The position numbers and the translations under genes were made by a program. Under the pieces are notes generated by a model, which was not told the DNA's origin, searched no databases, and saw only the letters and a list, made by a program, of their open reading frames with translations. Below are positions 1 through 64,000 of a stretch of DNA of 64,000 nucleotides, piece by piece. The stretch is from Candidatus Saccharibacteria bacterium RIFCSPHIGHO2_12_FULL_41_12 (GTDB taxonomy: Bacteria > Patescibacteriota > Saccharimonadia > Saccharimonadales > 2-12-FULL-41-12), in NCBI GenBank assembly GCA_001790445.1, contig MGCQ01000009.1:150500-214499 (forward strand), written 5' to 3'. Position 1 is the stretch's first letter; each line of letters begins with the position of its first letter.

Positions 1-2204
1 GAGACAGAACTCAGAGCCATGGCTAGACCGGCGAGTTCTGGTTTTAAAATGAGCCCAAAACCGGCAAACATGCGGGTGGCGATTGGTATGCCGACCACGT
101 TATAAAACAGAGCAAAAAATAGATTTTGCTTGATCTTGCTGACTGTTTCGCGTGATAGCTGGATGGCGGTGATAACGTCTGTCAGATCATTTCTCATTAG
201 TACGATACCGCCCGTTTCCATGGCAATATCCGTGCCTGCGCCCATAGCTATTCCCAGATCTGCCTGAGCCAAAGCTGGCGCATCGTTTATGCCGTCACCA
301 ACCATTGCTACGTTGTGCCCACTACTCTGCAACTCTTTTACCTTGGCTGCTTTGTCTCCTGGCAGAACTTCCGCTAAAACATTTTTTATGCCTAGTTCAC
401 TTGCAATAGCCTCGGCCGTCCGTCTGTTATCCCCTGTAATCATGTAAACTTTGAGACCCATTTTGCTAAGCACCGCCACGACGTTTTTAGAGGTTGGCTT
501 GATAGTATCAGCAACCGCAATTATTCCTACTACACCCTCATCGGTAGCAAGTATCATAGCTGTTTTGGCTTGGTTTTCAAGAGATTCCAGCTTGTTATTT
601 ATCTCTGATAGAACTTTTTGGTTTAGTTTTTCTGAGATCAAAAACCTATTTCCGAAAAAATACGGCACATTTTTAATAGACCCTTCAATCCCTTTGCCCG
701 AAACAGATTGGAAGTCATCAACTTTGGATTTTGAGAGCTTCAATTCATCTGCTTTTTGAATGATGGCTCTGGCTAGAGGGTGTTCGCTGTCTCTCTCCAG
801 CGACGCGGCAAGCTGTAGTACAGTATTCTCATCGTAACCATTCACGCCGATAATGTCTGTTACCGTGGGTTTTCCGTGCGTTAGTGTGCCTGTTTTGTCA
901 AAAATAATTGTATCAATTCGACGAGTTGCCTCAAGAGGTTCACCGCCCTTAACCAAGATACCAGATTCTGCTCCTTTGCCAGTACCCACCATAATTGCCG
1001 TAGGGGTAGCCAGTCCCAGTGCACAGGGGCAGGCGATAACCAGTACGGCGGTAAAGGCCATGAGAGCAAAAACAAAGCTACTACCAAAGACAAAAAACCA
1101 AGCCAAAAAGGTCAATATGGCAATTATAATTACAGCTGGCACAAACCAGTTTGAAATTCTGTCAGCAAACGCTTGGATAGGGGCCTTTGAGCTTTGAGCT
1201 TCATCAACCATCTTTATAATTTGTGCCAGCATAGTTTCTTTACCGACACGCGTAACTTTGAACTCAAAACTCCCAGTTTGGTTAATTGTTGCCCCAATAA
1301 CAGTGTCACCAATCTGTTTTGTCACGGGCATACTTTCGCCGGTTACCATTGACTCATCAACGCTAGAGTTGCCTTTTGTTATTTGACCGTCCAATGGGAC
1401 AGATTCTCCTGGGCGGACAAGCAGAATATCGCCGTGTTTTATCTGGTCGATCGGTTTTTCAATAATCTCACTGCCAACAACCAAATGTGCGGATTTGACC
1501 TGCAAACTCATCAGTTTATGGATGGCTTCGTTTGATTTACCTTTTGCTCTAGCTTCCAGCCACTTGCCAAGTAGTACAAAAGTTATCAAAAAGGCGGCAG
1601 TTTCAAAGTAAAGTTCAGGAATTTTCTCACCATTTACGCCAATTAGGCTACTATTTTGTACGGCGTATTTTATGTAAAAGGCTACACTGTAAAAATATGC
1701 GGCAGAGGTGCCGATTGCTACCAAACTGTCCATGTTGAAATTTTTCATCTTTAGTCCAGACCACATGCCTTTGTAAAAACTTGCCCCCAAATAAAACTGG
1801 ACTACAGTGCCCAGTAGCAGGGAAGTTATTCCTGCGCGGGGCATCAAAAACTCTGCCCCTGGTAACCAAGCTAGAAAGTCTATTGCCATAAAATATAGTA
1901 GTGGCAAGCTCAAGATTAAGCCGAGCAAGAATTTACGTTTGTACTGCTTGCCTGATCCACCATGATGCGCGTGACCTGATGGGTCGTTTTCGTCTACTGC
2001 ACTGGCAGAATACCCAGCTTTTTTCACCGCTGCGATCAAATGCTCTGGCGAGGCCTGGTTTTGGTCATGGACGATGCTTGCTTTCTCGCTGGCATAACTA
2101 ACCGAAGCTTGCTCTACGCCAGAAACCTTTATAAGTTCTTTTTGGATCAAGTTGGCGCAGGAGCTGCAGTGCATGCCGTGGATTGCTAATTTTGTTGTTG
2201 TCAT
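1..2204 (-). CDS. copA: Copper/heavy-metal translocating P1B-type ATPase (C-terminus cut by window edge)
   Basis: Absent from the ORF track because it runs off the edge. Reading the minus strand from ATG at 2204 gives [24 protein letters not shown] (HMA MxCxxC), [15 protein letters not shown] (CPC), [10 protein letters not shown] (phosphorylation site) and [14 protein letters not shown] (hinge) with no stop down to base 3. The short ORFs listed at 451-2101 are antisense or out-of-frame shadows. Confidence 0.9.
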
Positions 2205-21160: not shown

Positions 21161-21226
21161 AATTAATTTTAGAGAATAAGATTTTTTTGAACTACTTTCC
21201 GCCGACACCAAGGTGTCTGATGCGTC

Positions 21227-21644
21227 ATACTTTCTTGTGTTGACAAGAAAGTATGCAAAGAAACAACAGGCTGTTTGAAAAATACATATTGATCCAAACA
21301 AACCAAAAGCCCTGTTTCTGCGGGACTCCTTCCAGTCGGGCTAAAGCCTAGTCCTCAAAACAAGGAGCTTTTGATCTGTTCGTTTCATCTGTTTTTCAAA
21401 GGGCCTGATCAGTAGTAGTCTAAAGTCATGATTAATAATATTTCCATAGGAAATATACAAAGGAAGCCTGGGTCAGGCCATGAACCAGACCTGAGAGGTT
21501 TCGTAGAAATAACAACTATTAGCTGAGGACTGTTTGAGCAAAGCGAGTTCCGCAAGCTGTTGTTATTCTCTACAAGAAATCTCATCAAGTATGTTCATAG
21601 CCTGTTGTTTCTTTGGTTACTTTCTTGTCAACACAAGAAAGTAG
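21227..21644 (-). repeat. Intergenic structured repeat element, full-length copy A (core on minus strand)
   Basis: Bounded by hairpins ATACTTTCTTGTgttgACAAGAAAGTAT (left) and TTACTTTCTTGTcaacACAAGAAAGTAG (right). The ends are inverted (GCAAAGAAACAACAGGCTG / CAGCCTGTTGTTTCTTTGG). The conserved core GGGACTCCTTCCAGTCGGGCTAAAGCCTAGTCCTC is at 21322-21356. Confidence 0.8.
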
Positions 21645-21735
21645 CTCGTGCAAGGCACTTCAGTGCCGACGAAAGGCTGTTATGTAGTGGCAACTCTTGA
21701 TTTTACAGAGGTAATACGCTATAATCTGAGTCTAT

Positions 21736-21799
21736 GGTCTCATCGTCCGAGCGGTCTAGGCGCCAGGTTTCCGTCCTGGCAACTTCGAAGAAGATCACC
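21736..21799 (+). pseudogene. tRNA-like remnant (5' two-thirds related to the adjacent tRNA-Glu, T arm missing)
   Basis: It shares TATGGTCTCATCGTC and CCAGGTTTnCnTCCTGGCAA with tRNA-Glu. The anticodon loop is TTTCCGT (TCC). The D stem does not pair, the T arm collapses to CTTCGAAG, and it ends GAAGATCACC. It is about 64 nt and cannot fold into a normal cloverleaf. Confidence 0.3.
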
Positions 21800-21825
21800 T
21801 TTAACAATTCAGCAAGTACACATAT

Positions 21826-21900
21826 GGTCTCATCGTCTAACGGTTAGGACACCAGGTTTTCATCCTGGCAATAGGGGTTCGATTCCCCTTGAGATCACCA
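21826..21900 (+). tRNA. tRNA-Glu (anticodon UUC), CCA encoded
   Basis: Hand-folded cloverleaf of 75 nt. Acceptor GGTCTCA/TGAGATC (one G-U), D stem GTCT/GGAC, anticodon stem CCAGG/CCTGG with loop TTTTCAT, 4-nt variable region, T arm AGGGG-TTCGATT-CCCCT, discriminator A plus CCA. Confidence 0.9.
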
Positions 21901-21931: not shown

Positions 21932-22143
21932 GGTTTGGTGATGTTAATGCGAATCCTGAACAGGTTCGTTAATTGTCATAATCTATGATTTGACGATTTG
22001 GAGCCAATGTCAGAATAAGAAGCAAAGCGGATTATTATTACATTGAAGCGTCTTCCTCCTTGAGATCACCACAATTATTTTGAACTAGAAAATTACAGTA
22101 CCTAGAGCCAGATATATTAGACTCCCAGAATTGGAAGTCTAAC

Positions 22144-23277
22144 TTGACTAGAATACCAAATATTGTTAAAATTGGTAATGTGAATAACAATAACATCTTA
22201 ACTTTAGATTTCCCTCCAAATCTCGATAAGATATGGACAAAGGATTTTGCATTACAATTGGCTGCAACAGAAGGCTCTATTAGTGCATTGAACCAAGCCG
22301 TATCACTATTGCATAATCCAAATCTACTTATGCGACCTTTGCTAACAAAAGAAGCAGAATCCAGCTCTAGATTAGAAGGCACACAAGCATCAATGGATGA
22401 CGTTTTTAAGTCAGCAATGCGACCAGACTCTGAGCAGAGTGATGATGTTCGTGAAATTATCAATTATCAAAACGCATTGTTGCGTGGTGAGCATATCATA
22501 AAGACAAGACCACTAAATCAGGTGGTTATTAGACAAATTCACTCAGTTCTTATGAGTAACGTTAGAGGTGGTTCAGCCAATCCAGGTAGCTTTAGAACTG
22601 AAAATGTTTGGATTGGTGTACTTGGAACAGGAATGGGAGAAGCGAGATATGTGCCACCTGATGCTGTGCATATTCCTGAACTAATGAAAAATGTCGAAGA
22701 GTTTATGTCTAATTCACAAATGCACCCCCTAATAGCTTGTGGATTATTGCACCATAGATTTGAAGCAATTCACCCTTTTAAAGATGGTAATGGTAGAACA
22801 GGCAGGTTACTAATAACTTTATTCCTTCTTAAAACTCAAAAGTTATCTAAGCCAATGCTGTATCCAAGCGGATTTTTTGAAAAAAATAAAGATATTTATG
22901 TAAAAGCTCTTAATGCTGTTGATGTGAATCAGGATTGGTATAGTTGGTTGCTATTCTTCCTTAAAGCAATAGAAAAACAGGCAACAATATCATTGGGCGT
23001 GGCGAGTGAGATTGACAAATTATTCAAAGATTACAAGAGATTGATACAAGAGACCGCAGCTCACATGGCTTTAGGCAACGTTCTAGAATTTTGTTTTAAG
23101 CAGCCGTATGTTACGGTTGGACTTATATCAAGTGCTCTAGGTATGCCAGCTAATACTGTCCGAAGGTATATAACAACCCTTGAAAGCAAAGGCATATTAG
23201 ACCAACCTTATACAATCGCACGCGGCGAAAAAGTTTATACTAACAAAGCTCTTTTAGAGATCTTAAGAAAAATATAG
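22144..23277 (+). CDS. Fic family protein (AMPylase-type) with C-terminal winged-helix
   Basis: 377 aa. The Fic motif HPFKDGNGRTGRLL is present, and the N-terminal (S/T)xxxE(G/N) inhibitory-helix-like SSRLEGTQAS is upstream. TTG start as listed. Confidence 0.85.
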   Translation: MTRIPNIVKIGNVNNNNILTLDFPPNLDKIWTKDFALQLAATEGSISALNQAVSLLHNPNLLMRPLLTKEAESSSRLEGTQASMDDVFKSAMRPDSEQSDDVREIINYQNALLRGEHIIKTRPLNQVVIRQIHSVLMSNVRGGSANPGSFRTENVWIGVLGTGMGEARYVPPDAVHIPELMKNVEEFMSNSQMHPLIACGLLHHRFEAIHPFKDGNGRTGRLLITLFLLKTQKLSKPMLYPSGFFEKNKDIYVKALNAVDVNQDWYSWLLFFLKAIEKQATISLGVASEIDKLFKDYKRLIQETAAHMALGNVLEFCFKQPYVTVGLISSALGMPANTVRRYITTLESKGILDQPYTIARGEKVYTNKALLEILRKI

Positions 23278-26071: not shown

Positions 26072-26178
26072 GGAGGGAAAACCCAAAAAGGTTTTTCGCC
26101 TCCTTAGACTACGCTATCGCTTCGTGATCCTCCCTTTCCTTTGTCTAATACTTTATTGAGCAAGTAAATAAAGTATTA
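26070..26178 (+). terminator. Post-stop hairpin motif (SD-like AAGGAGGG ... CCTCCCTT) plus AT-rich hairpin; family-2 repeat, copy 1
   Basis: GGAGGGAAAACCC (26072-26084) and GATCCTCCCTTTCC (26126-26139) recur at 58901-58913 and 58926-58939. Also AAGGAGGGAAAACC/GGTTTTCGCCTCCTT and TAATACTTTATT-n8-AAATAAAGTATTA hairpins. Confidence 0.35.
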
Positions 26179-27550: not shown

Positions 27551-29665
27551 ATGATAGAGTCTCTTGTTCGTGGTCTTAATAAGGCCCAAGAATCTGCGGT
27601 GATTTGTACAGATGGTCCGATGCTTATCCTGGCCGGCGCAGGTAGTGGTAAAACCAAAACTCTAACGCACAAAATCGCCTATCTTTTGCAAATTAATAAA
27701 GTCCCGCCATCCCAAATTCTGGCGGTGACGTTTACAAACAAAGCGGCTAGAGAAATGGCTGACCGACTCGGAACGCTAATCGGTGGCAGAATAATTTTGC
27801 CATATCTTGGGACATTCCATAGCGTTTGCGTGCGGCTTCTCAGGAAATACGGTCAACAGATTGATATCCCCAGCAATTTTGTTATTTACGATGAAGCAGA
27901 CAAAAGAAACTTGGTCAAAAAAATTCTGAAGAGCCTCCACATAGATGAAAAAAAATATCCGCCTCCGCAAATTTCTGCAATTATTTCGAACGCCAAAAAT
28001 GATTTGATGGACCCTGATCATTACATAGAAATTTCCAGTGGACCAATTGCCGAGGTGGTCTACAGTGTATATACGCAATACCAAAGAGAACTCGCCGCCT
28101 CTAAAGCGTTAGATTTTGATGACATTATTATGAAAATGGTTGAGTTGCTCAAAGCTAGCAAACAGACCAGGCAATATTTGCATCAGCAAATTAATTATAT
28201 TTTTATCGACGAATATCAGGATACTAACCTTGCTCAGTACACATTGATCAAACTACTTATAAACAAATCCAAAAATATTACAGTGGTGGGGGATGATTGG
28301 CAGTCGATATATAGTTGGCGTGGGGCGGATTTTCGGAATATTTTGAAATTTGAAAAAGATTTCCCCGGTACAAAAGTTATAAAGTTGGAGCAAAATTATA
28401 GAAGTACTAAGAATATTCTTGATTCAGCCCATTCTGTTATTACCAAGAACACCAACCGGTCAGAAAAAAAATTGTTTACCGACCAAGGACATGGATCTCC
28501 TGTTGAAATAATTCAGACTCACAACGAAAGAGACGAAGGTCGTCGGGTGGCACAAATTATTCAACAAGAGCTTGCCATGGGCACGTCGTACGATGACATC
28601 GCTGTACTTTATCGGACGAATGCGCAGAGCCGATCTATAGAAGAATCGATGATCCACTACAATGTAGCCTATAAAATTGTCGGTGGTGTAAAGTTTTATG
28701 ATCGTAAGGAGATAAAAGATATATTGGCTTATTTGCGCCTAATCATGCAACCCGATGACCAGGCTAGTTTTGAGCGTATCTATAACGTGCCAAGCCGTAA
28801 AATTGGTGATAAATCATTGGCGACTTTTTATAATTTTAAGATATCGCGGGGACACAGTTTGAGCCAGACTTTGGACGAAATAGCTGGTTGTGAAGATTTA
28901 ACCCCTAGCACCCGCGTTGGCTGGGATAGTCTGGGGAATATAATTCGCAGTTTTAGAGACAAGCAAGAAGATTTGACAGTTGAGGAAATTATTCAGCAAC
29001 TTATCAAGATACTTGATTATTATGAATATCTGGATGATGGCACTGTACAGGGGGAATCTCGTCAGGAAAACGTCAAAGAGCTTCTAAGCGTTGCTAGTCA
29101 ATTTGTGGGACTCGGGCTGAGTGAATTCTTGGAACAAACGGCTTTAATAAGCGACCTAGATGAAAAAGACAAAGTCAACGGAGTTGTTACCCTAACAACT
29201 ACCCATGCGGCCAAGGGTTTAGAATTCCCTGTGGTGATTATGGCTGGCATGGAAGAAGGTATTTTCCCTCATTCTCGCTCGTTATTTGACGGGAGTGAAC
29301 TAGAAGAAGAAAGGCGTCTTTGTTATGTCGGCATGACTCGGGCCAAATCGAAGTTATATCTTACTTATGCACAGTCAAGAATGATTTTTGGTAAGCAAGA
29401 GTATAATATTCCGTCTCGCTTTCTCGGTGATATTGATGAAAATTTTGCAAAAAATACCGACAACGTTTCTGACTTATCTCCCAAACCAGTTACTTCAAGT
29501 GACCCTGTATACATACCTGAGCTTGAACCCGGCGATAATGTCTCTCACGGACTTTTTGGCAATGGCGCAGTACTTGAAGTAGATGGCTCATTTGCACTTG
29601 TCTATTTCAAAGGCAAAGGAAACAAGAAAATTAACTTAGAATTCGCCCCAATAAAGAAACTCTAA
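27551..29665 (+). CDS. pcrA: ATP-dependent DNA helicase, UvrD/PcrA family
   Basis: 704 aa. Motifs: AGAGSGKTKTLTHK (motif I), FIDEYQDTN (II), VGDDWQSIYSWRGA (III), TTHAAKGLEFPVV (VI region). Confidence 0.9.
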   Translation: MIESLVRGLNKAQESAVICTDGPMLILAGAGSGKTKTLTHKIAYLLQINKVPPSQILAVTFTNKAAREMADRLGTLIGGRIILPYLGTFHSVCVRLLRKYGQQIDIPSNFVIYDEADKRNLVKKILKSLHIDEKKYPPPQISAIISNAKNDLMDPDHYIEISSGPIAEVVYSVYTQYQRELAASKALDFDDIIMKMVELLKASKQTRQYLHQQINYIFIDEYQDTNLAQYTLIKLLINKSKNITVVGDDWQSIYSWRGADFRNILKFEKDFPGTKVIKLEQNYRSTKNILDSAHSVITKNTNRSEKKLFTDQGHGSPVEIIQTHNERDEGRRVAQIIQQELAMGTSYDDIAVLYRTNAQSRSIEESMIHYNVAYKIVGGVKFYDRKEIKDILAYLRLIMQPDDQASFERIYNVPSRKIGDKSLATFYNFKISRGHSLSQTLDEIAGCEDLTPSTRVGWDSLGNIIRSFRDKQEDLTVEEIIQQLIKILDYYEYLDDGTVQGESRQENVKELLSVASQFVGLGLSEFLEQTALISDLDEKDKVNGVVTLTTTHAAKGLEFPVVIMAGMEEGIFPHSRSLFDGSELEEERRLCYVGMTRAKSKLYLTYAQSRMIFGKQEYNIPSRFLGDIDENFAKNTDNVSDLSPKPVTSSDPVYIPELEPGDNVSHGLFGNGAVLEVDGSFALVYFKGKGNKKINLEFAPIKKL

Positions 29666-29667
29666 GT

Positions 29668-30007
29668 TTGTGTGGGGCAAACCCAAACGAACACTACAAA
29701 ACAGTAGCGCCAACGAGCCGAGAAGATATCTTCTCGGTCTGCACTACGCTTATACTCTGTTTTGTAGCATTCATTCGACTTTGCCAGACAACACTAAAGT
29801 TCTATGCGGACGTAAAGCCTTCAGGTTTGGCTCACGAAAAAACAGATGAAATAACCTACGAAACAAAGGATTGTTTTGAGGACCAGGCTTTAGCCCGACC
29901 AGAGGGAGTCCCGGAAAAACATCTTTTGGTTTGGAGGTTATTTCAATCACGTTTTTTTGTAAGCCGAGTTTCTTTGCTTACTTTCTTAGTCGGTACAAGA
30001 AAGTAAG
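29668..30007 (+). repeat. Intergenic structured repeat element, half copy C
   Basis: Shares with 63300-63632 the box GCACTnCGCTTATACTCT (29741-29758), GGCTCACnAAAAAA, the core GAGGACCAGGCTTTAGCCCGACCAGAGGGAGTCCC (29878-29912), TTATTTCAATCACGTTT, and an identical terminal hairpin TTACTTTCTTAGTCGGTACAAGAAAGTAAG (29978-30007). The 112-aa ORF listed here is a shadow. Confidence 0.8.
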
Positions 30008-30155
30008 ATATAAACGTATTGGAGATAGTTGGAGCAAAGCCACACACAATAAACGACGTAAATTGTGGTAAAATAGAGTTTACATTGTTGGTTCAATTAC
30101 AAAAACAAAGATATATTCGGTTAAACTGCGAGAGAGGGACCAACAGTAGTAGATA

Positions 30156-34634: not shown

Positions 34635-35046
34635 TGGTGGAGCTGGTGGGTATTGCACCCACGTCCATCGGTTTTACTTTGACTGGTCTTCTACATATTT
34701 AGTTTATTTACATATCTTTGAGGGTACCGGCTAAACAAACAAAACGATATCTTCGCATTTCTCATTGTCTTAGAGAATTCCGTGGAGAAAAGCACAAAAT
34801 TCTAGCAACCAGATAATATAACACGATTTTGATCTATCTGGTGTCGATCAAATCATGGTTTAAGACAAGCTTAAACTTGCGTAAGCTGGTGTGCTGATAG
34901 AAGCAACAAAATTATTAACCTTGTCGTTCATAGCATCAGCTATACGCTGAGTAAATGTTTTTGCATTTATTCAGTTTGTCTATAACGCTGACAAGCGATA
35001 TGCGAACCAATCTGTAAAAGTCCAATGTCGAGCTTAAATCAGCCCC
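34635..35046 (-). ncRNA. ssrA: tmRNA (SsrA), about 412 nt
   Basis: The minus strand begins GGGGCUGAUUUAAGCUCGACA... and ends ...GGACGUGGGUGCAAUACCCACCAGCUCCACCA. The acceptor stem is GGGGCUG/CAGCUCC with a G3:U70 pair, followed by ACCA. The T-arm-like helix is GUGGG-UGCAAUA-CCCAC. An extended -10 gTGcTATAAT (35056-35061) lies 9 nt upstream of the 5' G. Confidence 0.85.
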
Positions 35047-50838: not shown

Positions 50839-51144
50839 ATGATGGCAAAAGATACTACAGTTAAACCTGATGAGAAGTTAAACCAAGAGCAGTCGCTTCC
50901 TAAAGATCTCACGGTCAAACTTTATTCGCCCTACAAAGTTTATTTTAATGATTTGGCAGATACTGTCTCTGCAGTGAATAGAACAGGCCCATTTGATATT
51001 CTTTTGGGTCACCATAATTTTCTGACGTTGTTAGAACAATGTGAAGTTGTTATTCGTAATAAAAAAAATATTCAAAAATTCAAGATATCCAGAGGGATTA
51101 TGCACGTCAAAAAGAATAAAGTAACGATATTTCTTGACGTCTAA
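50839..51144 (+). CDS. atpC: F1-ATPase epsilon-subunit homologue (beta-sandwich only)
   Basis: 101 aa. LTVKLYSPYKVYFNDLADTVSAVNRTGPFDILLGHHNFLTLLEQCEVVI...ISRGIMHVKKNKVTIFLD follows the epsilon N-domain pattern. There is no C-terminal helical hairpin. Confidence 0.65.
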   Translation: MMAKDTTVKPDEKLNQEQSLPKDLTVKLYSPYKVYFNDLADTVSAVNRTGPFDILLGHHNFLTLLEQCEVVIRNKKNIQKFKISRGIMHVKKNKVTIFLDV

Positions 51145-51166
51145 AATTAGTTTTAACATCGTTGCA

Positions 51167-51189
51167 ATTAAAGCCTGGAAGGCTTTAAT
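51167..51189 (+). terminator. Hairpin after atpC
   Basis: ATTAAAGCC-tggaa-GGCTTTAAT. There is no clear T-run, and the repeat element follows immediately. Confidence 0.4.
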
Positions 51190-51193
51190 CACC

Positions 51194-51630
51194 ATACTTT
51201 CTTGTACTAACAAGAAAGTATGCAAAGAAATAGCAGGCTGTTGACCAGACTTGATGGGATTTCTTGTCGAGGATTACAACAGCTTGCGGAACTCCCCTCC
51301 GTGGCCTTCGGCGACGAAGGGTCAGACAGTCCTCGCCTAATAGTTGTAATCTCGACGAAATCTCTCAGGTCTGCTCAAGGCCTGACCAACAATCTGTATA
51401 TTTTCTATGAAAATATTATTAATACTTTAGACTACTTATTTAGCCCCTTTTAAAAACACCTTCGGTTATTGCAACTACAAACAGATTAATCTGAGGACCA
51501 GGGCTTGTCCCCGACTGGAAGGAGTCCCGGAAGAGTAGTCTGTTTGTAGTTGTAATAAGCTAGGGTAATTGTTTTTAAACCGGGGTGGCACTTTTTGCTT
51601 ACTTTTTCTTGCTAGAGAGAAAAAGTAAGG
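51194..51630 (+). repeat. Intergenic structured repeat element, full-length copy B (inverted relative to copy A)
   Basis: Left hairpin ATACTTTCTTGTactaACAAGAAAGTAT, then GCAAAGAAATAGCAGGCTG. A long imperfect hairpin spans 51246-51373. The core GAGGACCAGGGCTTGTCCCCGACTGGAAGGAGTCCC is at 51493-51528. The right hairpin is TTACTTTTTCTTGCTAGAGAGAAAAAGTAAGG. The 77-aa ORF listed inside is a shadow. Confidence 0.8.
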
Positions 51631-51761
51631 TGATAGAAGCCCTGCCAAGGGCTTAGCGCAAGAGATTATTATATATCTGTTATACTATCGTTTTTGTCGA
51701 CACAAAAATGGAACAAGAAATTGCTTGCTTGCAAGCCTGCTAAAAGATGAAAAAAAGATAA

Positions 51762-52712
51762 TCAGTCGATGACTATGTAATCAAATGCAAAGCTAGATCC
51801 TGCAGGCGCTGGGCTGGAGGTGCAGATACTAAAATTAGAAGATGATTTATTAATGTAGTAATTTATGTCGCCACCTGCAGAACCGACAGGGGTGATTGCT
51901 ATATGAGGTGAGTTGAATTTTTGGGTGAAATTAATAGTTGCAAAACAACCAGCACCGGGACCACCACCAATATTTACGTTAACAGTGCCAGCCGTATCTG
52001 TGCCACTTATTGATGATGTTCCTCCGCTTCCCAGAGCGCCACCATTACTTCGGCTAGGAGTACCCCCGCCTGCGTCGATATGACGATTAAGCAAAATGTC
52101 TCCATTAATTTGCAGAGTTTGAATATTGAGGGAAGAAGCTGTTAATATACCACCTACACTGAGCGGACCACTTACACTCATGCCTTTTTGTACACTAAGT
52201 TGCCCCTGTATTGTTGTATTGCCTGCTATCTGAAGATTGTTAACTTGTACGTGGTCAAAATTACTTGTTCCTGATACTGATATGCCAGGTAGGCTGAGCG
52301 ATCCACCAACTTTGATCTGTCCAGCTACTTCCAGATTATCTCTAATTAGTACCTTGCCAGCAAATATGGCATTCGACTCAACACTAAGAGTTTGCTTGGG
52401 ACTGCCAACTTTGACATCGGTTTCTTTGAGTTTGTCCATAGTGTTTTGGTCAAGAGCAGTGCTTTTAACTGAGGAATCAGGGTTTGCAACTTTAGCTTTA
52501 TAAAAAGCAAAAAAACTGGCAACACCGGCGATTATGATTAATAATATAAATCCTAATAAATATATATTGAGTTTACCGATGAGCTTTTGTAGCGAAAACG
52601 ACCTTTTAGGTTTTTGGACGGGCGTTTCTTCCGGAACGTTTTCTTCACTTGTCTCTATAGCTTCTAAGTCATCAACGCTAATATTTTCTTCTGGCTTATT
52701 TTCTTCTTCCAT
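51762..52712 (-). CDS. Membrane-anchored protein with beta-helix-like (bactofilin/polymer-forming-like) repeats
   Basis: ORF 51762-52808. I prefer ATG 52712 (MEEENKPE). It has an acidic N-terminus and one TM (IYLLGFILLIIIAGVASFFAF). Short repeats follow: LEVAGQIKVGGSLSLPGISVSGTSNFDHVQVNNLQIAGNTTIQGQLSVQKGMSVSGPLSVGGILTASSLNIQTLQINGDILL. Confidence 0.5.
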   Translation of the reverse strand: MEEENKPEENISVDDLEAIETSEENVPEETPVQKPKRSFSLQKLIGKLNIYLLGFILLIIIAGVASFFAFYKAKVANPDSSVKSTALDQNTMDKLKETDVKVGSPKQTLSVESNAIFAGKVLIRDNLEVAGQIKVGGSLSLPGISVSGTSNFDHVQVNNLQIAGNTTIQGQLSVQKGMSVSGPLSVGGILTASSLNIQTLQINGDILLNRHIDAGGGTPSRSNGGALGSGGTSSISGTDTAGTVNVNIGGGPGAGCFATINFTQKFNSPHIAITPVGSAGGDINYYINKSSSNFSICTSSPAPAGSSFAFDYIVID

Positions 52713-52842
52713 ACCACTTCCGTTATTACTATAGCAATTATAAACCATAGCATAAGCAATACCAACTTGCCCCGTACTTAGATGGGCTTGTTGTATTTTT
52801 TGACGCAAAGTGGCACAATAAACAATATAGTGGGGTTAACAT

Positions 52843-63272: not shown

Positions 63273-63299
63273 ATTATTTATTATTAAAATAACGTCTGT

Positions 63300-63632
63300 G
63301 GAATCGGATCATGCCCGAAAAGAGAGCGTTACATGCCGGGAAACTTTCTGTTTCTCGGATTGCACTCCGCTTATACTCTCTTTTAAGGCATGATCCGATT
63401 CCATCAGGACTTAGAACCCCTACTTTGTTACAGATTTAATTCTCGCATCCTGGCTCACAAAAAAACTGATGAAAATGACTTTATGGCAAAGGACAGTTTT
63501 GAGGACTAGGGCTTGTCCCCGACCAAAGGGAGTCCCACAGAAACATCTTTTGGCAGGAAGTTATTTTCAATCACGTTTCTTTTGTAAGCCGAGTTTCTTT
63601 GCTTACTTTCTTAGTCGGTACAAGAAAGTAAG
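63300..63632 (+). repeat. Intergenic structured repeat element, half copy D
   Basis: 16-bp stem GGAATCGGATCATGCC (63300-63315) / GGCATGATCCGATTCC (63387-63402). Box GCACTCCGCTTATACTCT (63362-63379). Core GAGGACTAGGGCTTGTCCCCGACCAAAGGGAGTCCC (63501-63536). The terminal hairpin at 63603-63632 is identical to that of copy C. Confidence 0.8.
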
Positions 63633-63715
63633 ATATCAATAACAGAAAGATAATAATATACTAGCGGGGGATAGATTAAATAAAGTTTTGCCAAGAAAGA
63701 CATAAGAGACCAATC

Positions 63716-63724
63716 TGTTATAAT
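63716..63724 (+). promoter_or_regulatory. Extended -10 (TGtTATAAT), 7 nt before ftsA ATG 63732
   Basis: cTGtTATAATaaatcttATG. Confidence 0.45.
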
Positions 63725-63731
63725 AAATCTT

Positions 63732-64000
63732 ATGGTTAAGATATTTGATAAGGCAAATCAATTGTTTGGTTCTAGCAACCAGAAGTTGTTCGCCAAAGAA
63801 AACCACATACTAGCCCTAGACATCGGCACAGAGTTTGTGAAGGCTTTGATCGGCAAGGTAGCCAAAAATGGAGACATTGAGATTATTGGTGTCGGTCGCT
63901 ATCATCAAGAATTGTCAGATATGCAGGCTGGGGCTATTGCAGATATCAGCGGAGTGGTAGAGAACTGCAACCGCGCACTTGTTGACGCGGAAAATCAGGC
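63732..64000 (+). CDS. ftsA: Cell division protein FtsA (N-terminal fragment, continues past window)
   Basis: Not in the track because it is open at the window end. MVKIFDKANQLF...ILALDIGTEFVKALIGKVAKNGDIEIIGVGRYHQELSDMQAGAIADISGVVENCNRAL matches the actin-like FtsA N-terminus (LDIGT..VK, G.I.D). Confidence 0.75.
   Translation, partial: MVKIFDKANQLFGSSNQKLFAKENHILALDIGTEFVKALIGKVAKNGDIEIIGVGRYHQELSDMQAGAIADISGVVENCNRALVDAENQ

Follow-up and report, generated by a model that had tools for sequence, protein, structure and literature searches.

A large, structured, probably REPIN/BIME-like repeat in a Saccharibacteria genome

Enterobacterial bacterial interspersed mosaic elements (BIMEs) and the BOX elements of Streptococcus pneumoniae are mosaics of modules that vary in order and orientation, lie at the 3' ends of genes or between convergent genes, and have predicted stable folds in their transcripts (reviewed in PMC3184786). 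Single-strand origins of the ssoA type, found on rolling-circle plasmids, are imperfect palindromes of 150–300 nucleotides (nt) that function, as folded single-stranded DNA (ssDNA), in one orientation only and carry conserved apical loops on variable stems. Repetitive extragenic palindromes (REPs) are imperfect palindromes of 20–40 nt whose 5' foot, the tetranucleotide GT[AG]G or CGTC, is conserved (PMC3733652, PMC6006769). Here we describe a repeat family in a 64,000-nt stretch (the window) of Candidatus Saccharibacteria bacterium RIFCSPHIGHO2_12_FULL_41_12 (GCA_001790445.1, contig MGCQ01000009.1, positions 150,500–214,499, forward strand). The window holds four copies, A, B, C and D, each 0.3–0.5 kb in size and spaced at about one per 13–16 kb, and copy B is our main subject. 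The family is previously undescribed, ~0.5 kb long and non-coding: no internal open reading frame (ORF) was found in the repeat, and a full-text literature search returned no description of such repeats in Saccharibacteria or Patescibacteria. The family is very probably a mobile structured repeat under single-strand selection. The best reading overall, and in our judgement the probable one, is that it is a lineage-specific, mosaic, dyad-symmetric, non-coding mobile repeat, similar to BIMEs and to REPINs (REP doublets forming hairpins), that is recognised in single-stranded form.

The repeat is best filed as an unusually large and elaborate variant of the REPIN/BIME kind, and it falls outside REPs, miniature inverted-repeat transposable elements with terminal inverted repeats (TIR MITEs) and IS200-derived elements as these are defined. 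With REPs, REPINs and their REP-associated tyrosine transposases (RAYTs), known together as the REPtron (PMC3116915, PMC5581495, PMC6006769), it shares dispersed, extragenic, non-coding palindromes in inverted doublets and singlets, several sequence types per genome, the absence of target duplication and a proposed single-stranded handling of hairpins. One class-2 Y1 gene is nested among repeat copies, on a contig from Hainich. There are differences too. The arm here is ~250 nt, with three hairpins and a multi-helix junction, as opposed to a hairpin of 20–40 nt. No GT[AG]G or CGTC foot is conserved, the terminal hairpin being followed by GTAG, GTAA or GTAT according to the copy. The hairpins that flank the Y1 gene are unlike element sequence and absent from the elements, and the genome that carries the repeat, of a groundwater Saccharibacterium, is tightly packed. 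The repeat resembles BIMEs and BOX elements in its modular mosaic build, its sites 3' of genes and between convergent genes, and its stable predicted transcript folds, but its modules are much longer and its 34-nt junction is nearly invariant across all types.

Other described elements are further off. TIR MITEs such as Correia, ERIC/IRU, RUP and Nezha (PMC3184786) are likewise small, non-coding, dyad-symmetric, multi-copy and intergenic, and are present or absent between relatives. The repeat differs from them in showing no target duplication, in being conserved inside its arms, in usually joining arms of different types, and in its intra-arm covariation and single-strand selection. TIR MITEs are also defined by terminal inverted repeats that are their best-conserved part and match an autonomous insertion sequence (IS), and beside the copies there is no transposase except in the single Y1 case. 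The ends of IS200/IS605 elements and the ORF-less palindrome-associated transposable elements (PATEs) share with the repeat a single-strand recognition of hairpins and the lack of target duplication; in IS200/IS605 the active strand is the one on the lagging-strand template, and for B, C and D the sense strand is on the probable lagging template. Their left-end and right-end hairpins, however, sit on the same strand without inverted symmetry, whereas the arms here are inverted; they are partnered by a class-1 TnpA, which has a Y---Q motif, and have a conserved tetra- or pentanucleotide target, and no conserved tetranucleotide target is seen here. The likeness to ssoA origins is an analogy of working only, a long imperfect palindrome with a conserved apex on a variable stem. 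Those origins are plasmid-borne and occur once per replicon, whereas the repeat shows no sequence similarity to them and has no replicon context.

Copy B lies in a 617-nt gap between atpC (50839–51144, plus strand) and a convergent gene of 348 amino acids (aa) (51762–52808, minus strand). Its extent was read from the sequence, aligned to copy A and checked by comparing the ends, and its layout is two arms facing outward with an AT-rich hairpin between them. The first-pass annotation had placed the copy at 51194–51630; the region is as described there, and the element extends ~30 nt further on each side through its end hairpins. The parts of copy B and its neighbouring fragment are as follows.

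~51162–51661, plus strand: full copy B, from terminus TTGCAATT to terminus AGCGCAA
51170–51186, strand unspecified: left end hairpin T (AAAGCC-TGGA-AGGCTTT)
51193–51222: left terminal hairpin H1 (CATACTTTCTTGT-ACTA-ACAAGAAAGTATG)
51227–51391, minus strand: long hairpin, a degenerate core arm, inverted (GAGGACTG...GAGTTCCGCAAG on the minus strand)
51295–51321: optional GC-rich apical hairpin (CCCTCCGTGGCCTTCGGCGACGAAGGG)
51398–51416: central AT-rich hairpin (ATATTTTC-TAT-GAAAATAT), on the dyad axis of the element
51435–51593, plus strand: core arm, a long covarying hairpin under the conserved junction (covariance model 64.7 bits)
51493–51527, plus strand: nearly invariant core GAGGACCAGG-GCTTGTCC-CCGACTGGAAGGAGTCC
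51501–51511: small hairpin GGG-CTTGT-CCC inside the core
51598–51630: right terminal hairpin H2 (CTTACTTTTTCTTG-CTAGAG-AGAAAAAGTAAG)
51637–51654: right end hairpin T (AAGCCC-TGCCA-AGGGCTT)
51688–51742, minus strand: solo end-module fragment of the same repeat family, between copy B and the convergent gene

The arm is the unit of the family. It consists of a ~55-bp covarying hairpin with a junction cap, a linker, a ~30-nt terminal hairpin and a short end hairpin, ~250 nt in total. Its apex is a nearly invariant 34-nt junction, GAGGACYAGG-hairpin-CCCGAC-N5-GGAGTCCC (the 3' motif is also written GGAGTCCCGSA), and conservation is highest here, ~100 nt inside each arm, and not at the tips of the element. 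Arms fall into at least five sequence types that combine freely, the identical invariant junction sitting atop stems of unrelated sequence. Most elements from metagenomes have two inverted arms of differing types, with 3' ends outward and, between the arms, a central hairpin whose apex is AT-rich. Across copies, at least three unrelated variants of the end modules occur, and the stem of the left end hairpin covaries (AAAGCC, GAACCC, AAGCCC). The solo fragment at 51688–51742 comprises GTTTTTGTCGACACAAAAATGGAAC and a GCTTGC..GCAAGC hairpin; in reverse complement it corresponds to the GGCTTGC..GCAAGCC and GTTCCATTTTTGTGTCGACAAAAACGGAAC modules, complete versions of which cap the left ends of L023 and L052 (loci outside the window carry L numbers).

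Copy B is copy A inverted: A, when reverse-complemented, aligns with it over ~447 nt at 69% identity. The first-pass annotation had described B as A in the opposite orientation, which is true, yet each element is itself pseudo-palindromic. It had further read the differences between the two copies as joint changes in paired segments, and these bear scrutiny. In the 14-bp segment of the long hairpin quoted there, both arms have changed together, with A pairing GTAGAGAATAACAAC to GTTGTTATTTCTAC and B pairing GTCGAGGATTACAAC to GTTGTAATCTCGAC; the changes from A:T to C:G (alignment columns 35/121) and from A:T to T:A (columns 42/115) are both unambiguous. A third change, at columns 39/118 (A to G and T to C), counts as compensatory provided that G38 is the base bulged out in A and in B alike; if not, it is a step from G:U to G:C. 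The AT-rich hairpin differs by a change from C:G to T:A (ATATTTCC/GGAAATAT in A, ATATTTTC/GAAAATAT in B), and the small core hairpin is GGC-TTTA-GCC in A and C as against GGG-CTTGT-CCC in B and D. The GC-rich apical insert reported for B is indeed present but is not unique to it: L023 and L035 have it as well, and A and L031 lack it.

Conserved pairing with changed sequence had been taken as a mark of selection on a folded nucleic acid, and the check proposed for it, run with R-scape-equivalent counting on added copies, found covariation far above the controls. The method combined structural alignment, a covariance model and pair counting, with 500 shuffles and slid pairing partners as controls. 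Covariation was counted within each alignable group; a MAFFT alignment of all arm types pooled misaligns the outer stems. Across 12 core arms, 24 of the 49 pairs scored change on both sides, and 93.4% of cells pair, compared with 77.9% in shuffles. The covariation score is 0.443 against 0.169 for shuffled arms; none of the 500 shuffles reaches it, and slid controls stay at or below 0.16. The type-2 group (8 arms) has compensatory changes at 22 of 54 pairs. For the long hairpin, aligned over four copies, both partners change in 6 of 51 pairs, and pairing holds in 97.5% of 204 cells, a share that falls to 31–40% when partners are slid by 1–3 columns.

The pairing is also polar. Comparison of each 5' stem arm with the reverse complement of its 3' partner gives 862 Watson-Crick pairs, 64 G:U and 9 A:C, an imbalance which means that one particular strand is the folded one. 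RNA folding of copies A and B gives z-scores of -10 to -12 against shuffled sequence on either strand, and the core strand folds better than its complement by 7.6 kcal/mol on average (n = 22). In two-armed elements the wobble excess lies on the outward-reading strand of each arm, that is, on opposite chromosomal strands only a few hundred bases apart, which excludes both a replication-linked mutation bias and copying between stem arms. We are confident that the simplest reading is selection on the single-stranded fold, RNA or ssDNA, of the outward strand. We know of no report of a strand-specific wobble excess in the BIME or BOX families.

Copies B and D are insertions in the lineage of the window, because syntenic relatives have spacers of 1–31 nt at these sites and no copies. 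The spacer between atpC and the convergent gene is 1–10 nt in L062 and L063, against 617 nt in the window, and the alaS–ftsA spacer, 461 nt in the window with copy D, is 31 nt in L061 and L062. A search of ~60 kb of the three syntenic relatives (L061–L063) by BLAST and by the covariance model gave no repeat copy. Flanking proteins are 72–88% identical in L061 and L062, and L063 goes down to 51–56% for atpC and the convergent gene; AlaRS homologues are labelled Candidatus Saccharibacteria or Saccharimonadales, the nearest being ~80% identical. Neither A (flanks ..gatttttttg / atgtagtggc..) nor B (flanks ..taacatcg / gagattatta..) has a visible target-site duplication at its ends, and the flanks of the copies have no common motif beyond a loose ..AGTT. 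The Pfam labels of the genes called in the window, which are housekeeping or unknown, include no transposase, reverse transcriptase or nuclease domain.

Copy D sits just upstream of a conserved sequence that precedes ftsA. This sequence, CAATCTGTTATAAT(A/G)AA(T/A)CTTATGG, is kept directly 5' of ftsA in the window (63690–63740), in L061 (7066–7100) and in L062 (11906–11940). Within it, an extended -10 box (TGTTATAAT) precedes the start codon by only ~9 nt, which suggests an ftsA mRNA that is leaderless or has a very short leader.

The remaining copies in the window show how the modules are reused.

~21186–21686, minus strand: copy A, full element, opposite in orientation to B
21260–21414, minus strand: core arm of copy A (covariance model 165 bits)
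21467–21611, plus strand: long hairpin of copy A, an inverted, degenerate core arm (covariance model 39.4 bits)
29658–30014, plus strand: copy C, a single core arm (29820–29974) and terminal hairpin after a different palindromic 5' domain
63297–63639, plus strand: copy D, a single core arm (63443–63599) and terminal hairpin after a C-type 5' domain

The termini of copy A form an 83-nt inverted repeat that is 77% complementary. C and D share with A and B the 3' half only, their 5' domain being another palindrome. Beyond the window, a pattern scan of metagenomes gave 49 loci, 17 of which are true relatives; the ~30 discarded are chance matches within GC-rich coding regions. The true loci come mostly from Hainich groundwater, from filtrates of well H41. 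Arms occur as inverted pairs in A, B, L007, L028, L034, L042, L044, L051 and L052 and singly in C, D and L009. Every copy, in the window and at the metagenomic loci, is intergenic, and doublets and singlets are dispersed in many copies. The gene contexts of the 17 loci are unrelated, a contig-end position is frequent, and a neighbouring protein family shared among them was looked for and not found. L018 is 100% identical to copy C, upstream gene included. Viral contigs, phage records and plasmid records hold nothing that resembles the repeat. In the window only a tmRNA and tRNA-Glu pass the gathering threshold of Rfam 15, and at E values up to 10 the only matches of the repeat copies are to generic models of microRNA-precursor hairpins, with scores far under threshold.

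Short-read assemblies of the RIFCSPHIGHO2_12_FULL_41_12 organism break at the repeats. L057 and L059 are other assemblies of the genome in the window, and contigs of sample SRR2090157 stop next to copy B and no more than 164 nt away from copy C.

On sequence grounds, the long hairpin of A and B is a degenerate, inverted homologue of the core arm, which makes both copies two-armed. Covariance model R1, built from the 12 core arms, recovers all core arms and matches the long hairpins on the opposite strand only; for the long hairpin of B the minus strand gets 32.1 bits and the plus strand 0.8 bits. The homology also draws on a ~60-nt hairpin (..GTGGCTTCTGGCTAAGGTCAGGCTTAGCCTG..) inserted at the same relative position in both kinds of arm, directly after GGAGTYCCG, in a normal arm of L051 (~650–720) and in the long hairpin of L035 (~340–400). 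Either the junction has this hairpin as an optional stem, or the hairpin is itself mobile, a second and smaller one that targets a precise site.

The long hairpin of L035 (238–448) is chimeric, with a 5' arm of L023 type and a 3' arm of B type that do not pair; either recombination between copies made it, or it is a misassembly at a repeat. L007 and L031 show a like pattern, one arm and a flank being 100% identical and the other arm different. Three further structural candidates were set aside. A closing helix between the two linkers is present solely where the two arms match in type (A is an example) and is not family-wide. A pseudoknot between CCGAC of the core and GUCGG of the terminal-hairpin loop is possible in C-type and D-type copies alone. 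A hammerhead motif (CUGAUGA in D, L009 and L035) was dropped, most copies having CAGAUGA in a segment that is paired within the stem.

A lead to an enzyme comes from L052, where positions 1294–1914 encode, between outward-pointing arms, a 206-aa protein with a Pfam Y1_Tnp match (E 4.7e-10). Its sole NCBIfam match is 'REP-associated tyrosine transposase', under the cut-off of that model. Its motifs are HFH and YIHLNP; Y---NP is the signature of class-2 TnpA_REP, and IS200 transposases have Y---Q (PMC6006769). The closest relative of this gene is a single locus in all 24 contigs read, as is expected of a domesticated RAYT (PMC5581495). The stretch 1205–1975 of L052 is the same locus as L064 2741–3491 and L066 57–807; L066, which has an apparently intact arm beside the Y1 gene, was left out of the analysis but for this match, because a run of N marks a scaffold join in it. 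The names of the Hainich H41 contigs give coverage values that are low and alike, which suggests one genome with many repeats and one Y1 gene. Inverted GAGGTC(A/T)GACCTC hairpins (GAGGTCWGACCTC) flank the gene, with a 47-nt tandem duplication on one side.

How might such a repeat work? The arm would be a recognition module for a trans-acting protein that handles single-stranded nucleic acid, the invariant junction being the putative binding site and the covarying stem merely presenting it. In its likeliest form, the substrate would be ssDNA at replication forks, cut and rejoined by a RAYT-type HUH/Y1 enzyme as proposed for REPINs. We hold this ssDNA/HUH step only tentatively. It draws on the doublets and singlets, the absence of both promoters and target duplications, the RAYT-like gene nested among arms and a sense strand on the probable lagging template: B, C and D have the plus strand as their sense strand, and GC skew and gene orientation suggest that the plus strand is the lagging-strand template. 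Transcripts through the element would fold too, and may end or stabilise neighbouring transcripts.

Several findings weigh against a REPIN-like repeat recognised in single-stranded form. The GAGGTC(A/T)GACCTC hairpins also flank Y1 homologues of 62–64% identity in unrelated genomes (L067–L073), and the hairpin–Y1 gene cassette is conserved across distant candidate phyla radiation (CPR) and other bacteria. The GAGGTCWGACCTC hairpin is absent from all element copies and from the window, even with 2 mismatches allowed, so the evident cognate site of the Y1 enzyme is not part of the element. The association of Y1 gene and repeat is a co-location at a single locus, and the 64-kb window has no Y1 gene. 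Copy A points opposite to B, C and D, and the few wobble pairs of the long hairpin fall on the plus strand of B, not on the strand implied by its homology. The termini given are approximate, and filled and empty sites are compared at the level of spacers. Finally, G:U makes up ~7% of pairs, which is typical of structured RNAs, and the optional stems at fixed junction positions (L051, L035) are RNA-like.

These last features lead to the main rival, that the arms are genes for structured small RNAs. Outward transcription from the AT-rich centre would give two divergent RNAs per full element, each stopping at its terminal and end hairpins; the invariant junction would serve to bind a protein or another RNA, and multiplication would be secondary, by duplication or an RNA-mediated step. 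We regard this as possible but doubtful. The 64:9 ratio of G:U to A:C, the wobble on the outward-reading strand of both arms in dual elements, the confinement of sequence conservation to a multi-helix junction over covarying stems, and the two hairpins at the 3' end of each arm, the last flanked by T-rich sequence, would all suit an RNA. A promoter scan, however, found no sigma-70-like promoter inside the elements or in or next to the centre, and a terminator scan of 51000–51900 called none of the hairpins of B, whose end hairpins are followed by TTTAAT only, an intrinsic terminator being a GC-rich stem with a run of T behind it. Terminator-like sites number just two, in the solo end fragment (51723–51736, minus strand) and at the centre of the L028 element (1013–1034, plus strand). 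Rfam offers no match even at the relaxed limit, and A is oriented against its sole upstream gene. Insertions that are missing in close relatives, a mosaic build and assembly breaks are, moreover, the behaviour of a selfish repeat. A purely host-serving cis element, that is, a bidirectional terminator, insulator or mRNA stabiliser as proposed for REP/BIME, spread by occasional recombination, fits poorly and is improbable. It would account for the position of all four window copies directly 3' of a plus-strand gene, for B lying between convergent genes, and for palindromic end hairpins, AAAGCC-loop-GGCTTT in form, that have T-rich sequence beside them on both strands. But the syntenic relatives do without the element, the end hairpins go uncalled in the terminator scan, and a 34-nt invariant junction and a ~55-bp covarying stem are both things that a terminator can do without; such a role is also compatible with mobility, which makes it weak as the sole explanation.

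Two further alternatives fit the data poorly as well. A classical MITE, an internally deleted derivative of an IS with a DDE transposase, would move as double-stranded DNA through its terminal inverted repeats, with hairpins that are incidental. The dyad symmetry of the whole element, the inverted-repeat termini of A and a size below 600 nt without an ORF, dispersed in intergenic DNA, are what such a MITE would look like. The ends of A and B nonetheless show no target-site duplication, the conservation peak lies within the arms and not at the termini, and the arms of one element are usually of different types. Compensation within arms and a strand-specific wobble excess are unexpected of a double-stranded binding site, and no DDE transposase was found in the window or beside any copy; we consider this origin quite improbable. 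The idea that the palindromes are neutral products of foldback or template-switch replication errors, the compensation arising as one stem arm is copied onto the other, could appeal to the roughly equal folding of both strands overall (z -10 to -12). Copying between arms, though, predicts perfect Watson-Crick pairing and symmetric decay, against the observed 64 G:U and 9 A:C on opposite strands, and five arm types carry the same invariant junction on unrelated stems. This last explanation is extremely improbable.

A mobile repeat of the REPIN/BIME kind, recognised as a single strand, is thus the reading we prefer. We think it rather unlikely that the arm is instead a new structured nucleic acid that acts autonomously, its junction being a putative catalytic or guide-like module on a covarying stem; such an arm might be a self-processing RNA, or an ssDNA recognition or priming site working from the 3' end of either strand. 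If that were true, a gene-less element would be multiplying in a very compact bacterial genome without a dedicated transposase of a known type. Saccharibacteria and other CPR genomes are tiny and tightly packed, and the repeats here are each kept by dozens of compensatory pairs around an invariant junction. The family offers a ready covariation data set for a large new structured element and, in a lineage now culturable with its hosts, marks recent genome dynamics. It is also a test case for REPIN-like systems in CPR bacteria, larger and more elaborate and possibly with a RAYT-type enzyme, and it explains the assembly breaks at these sites in these genomes.

Other features of the window deserve mention. 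A hairpin at 26149–26175, TACTTTATTGAGCAAGTAAATAAAGTA, 3' of the PGK gene has a stem like the terminal hairpin of the family (2 mismatches), with surroundings unrelated to the family, and is probably an ordinary terminator. The tmRNA gene (34635–35046, minus strand; Rfam 87 bits, ARAGORN silent) fills another long intergenic gap. Near tRNA-Glu (21826–21900), a tRNA-like fragment at 21736–21800 has the same first 12 nt, with an anticodon-like loop TTTCCGT and no T arm, ARAGORN and Rfam both being silent on it. The 3' end of the tRNA is repeated ~160 nt past it as CCTTGAGATCACCA (22058–22072), just 5' of a gene with a Fic domain (22144–23277). These tRNA-Glu repeats look like an attachment-site duplication from an integrated element.

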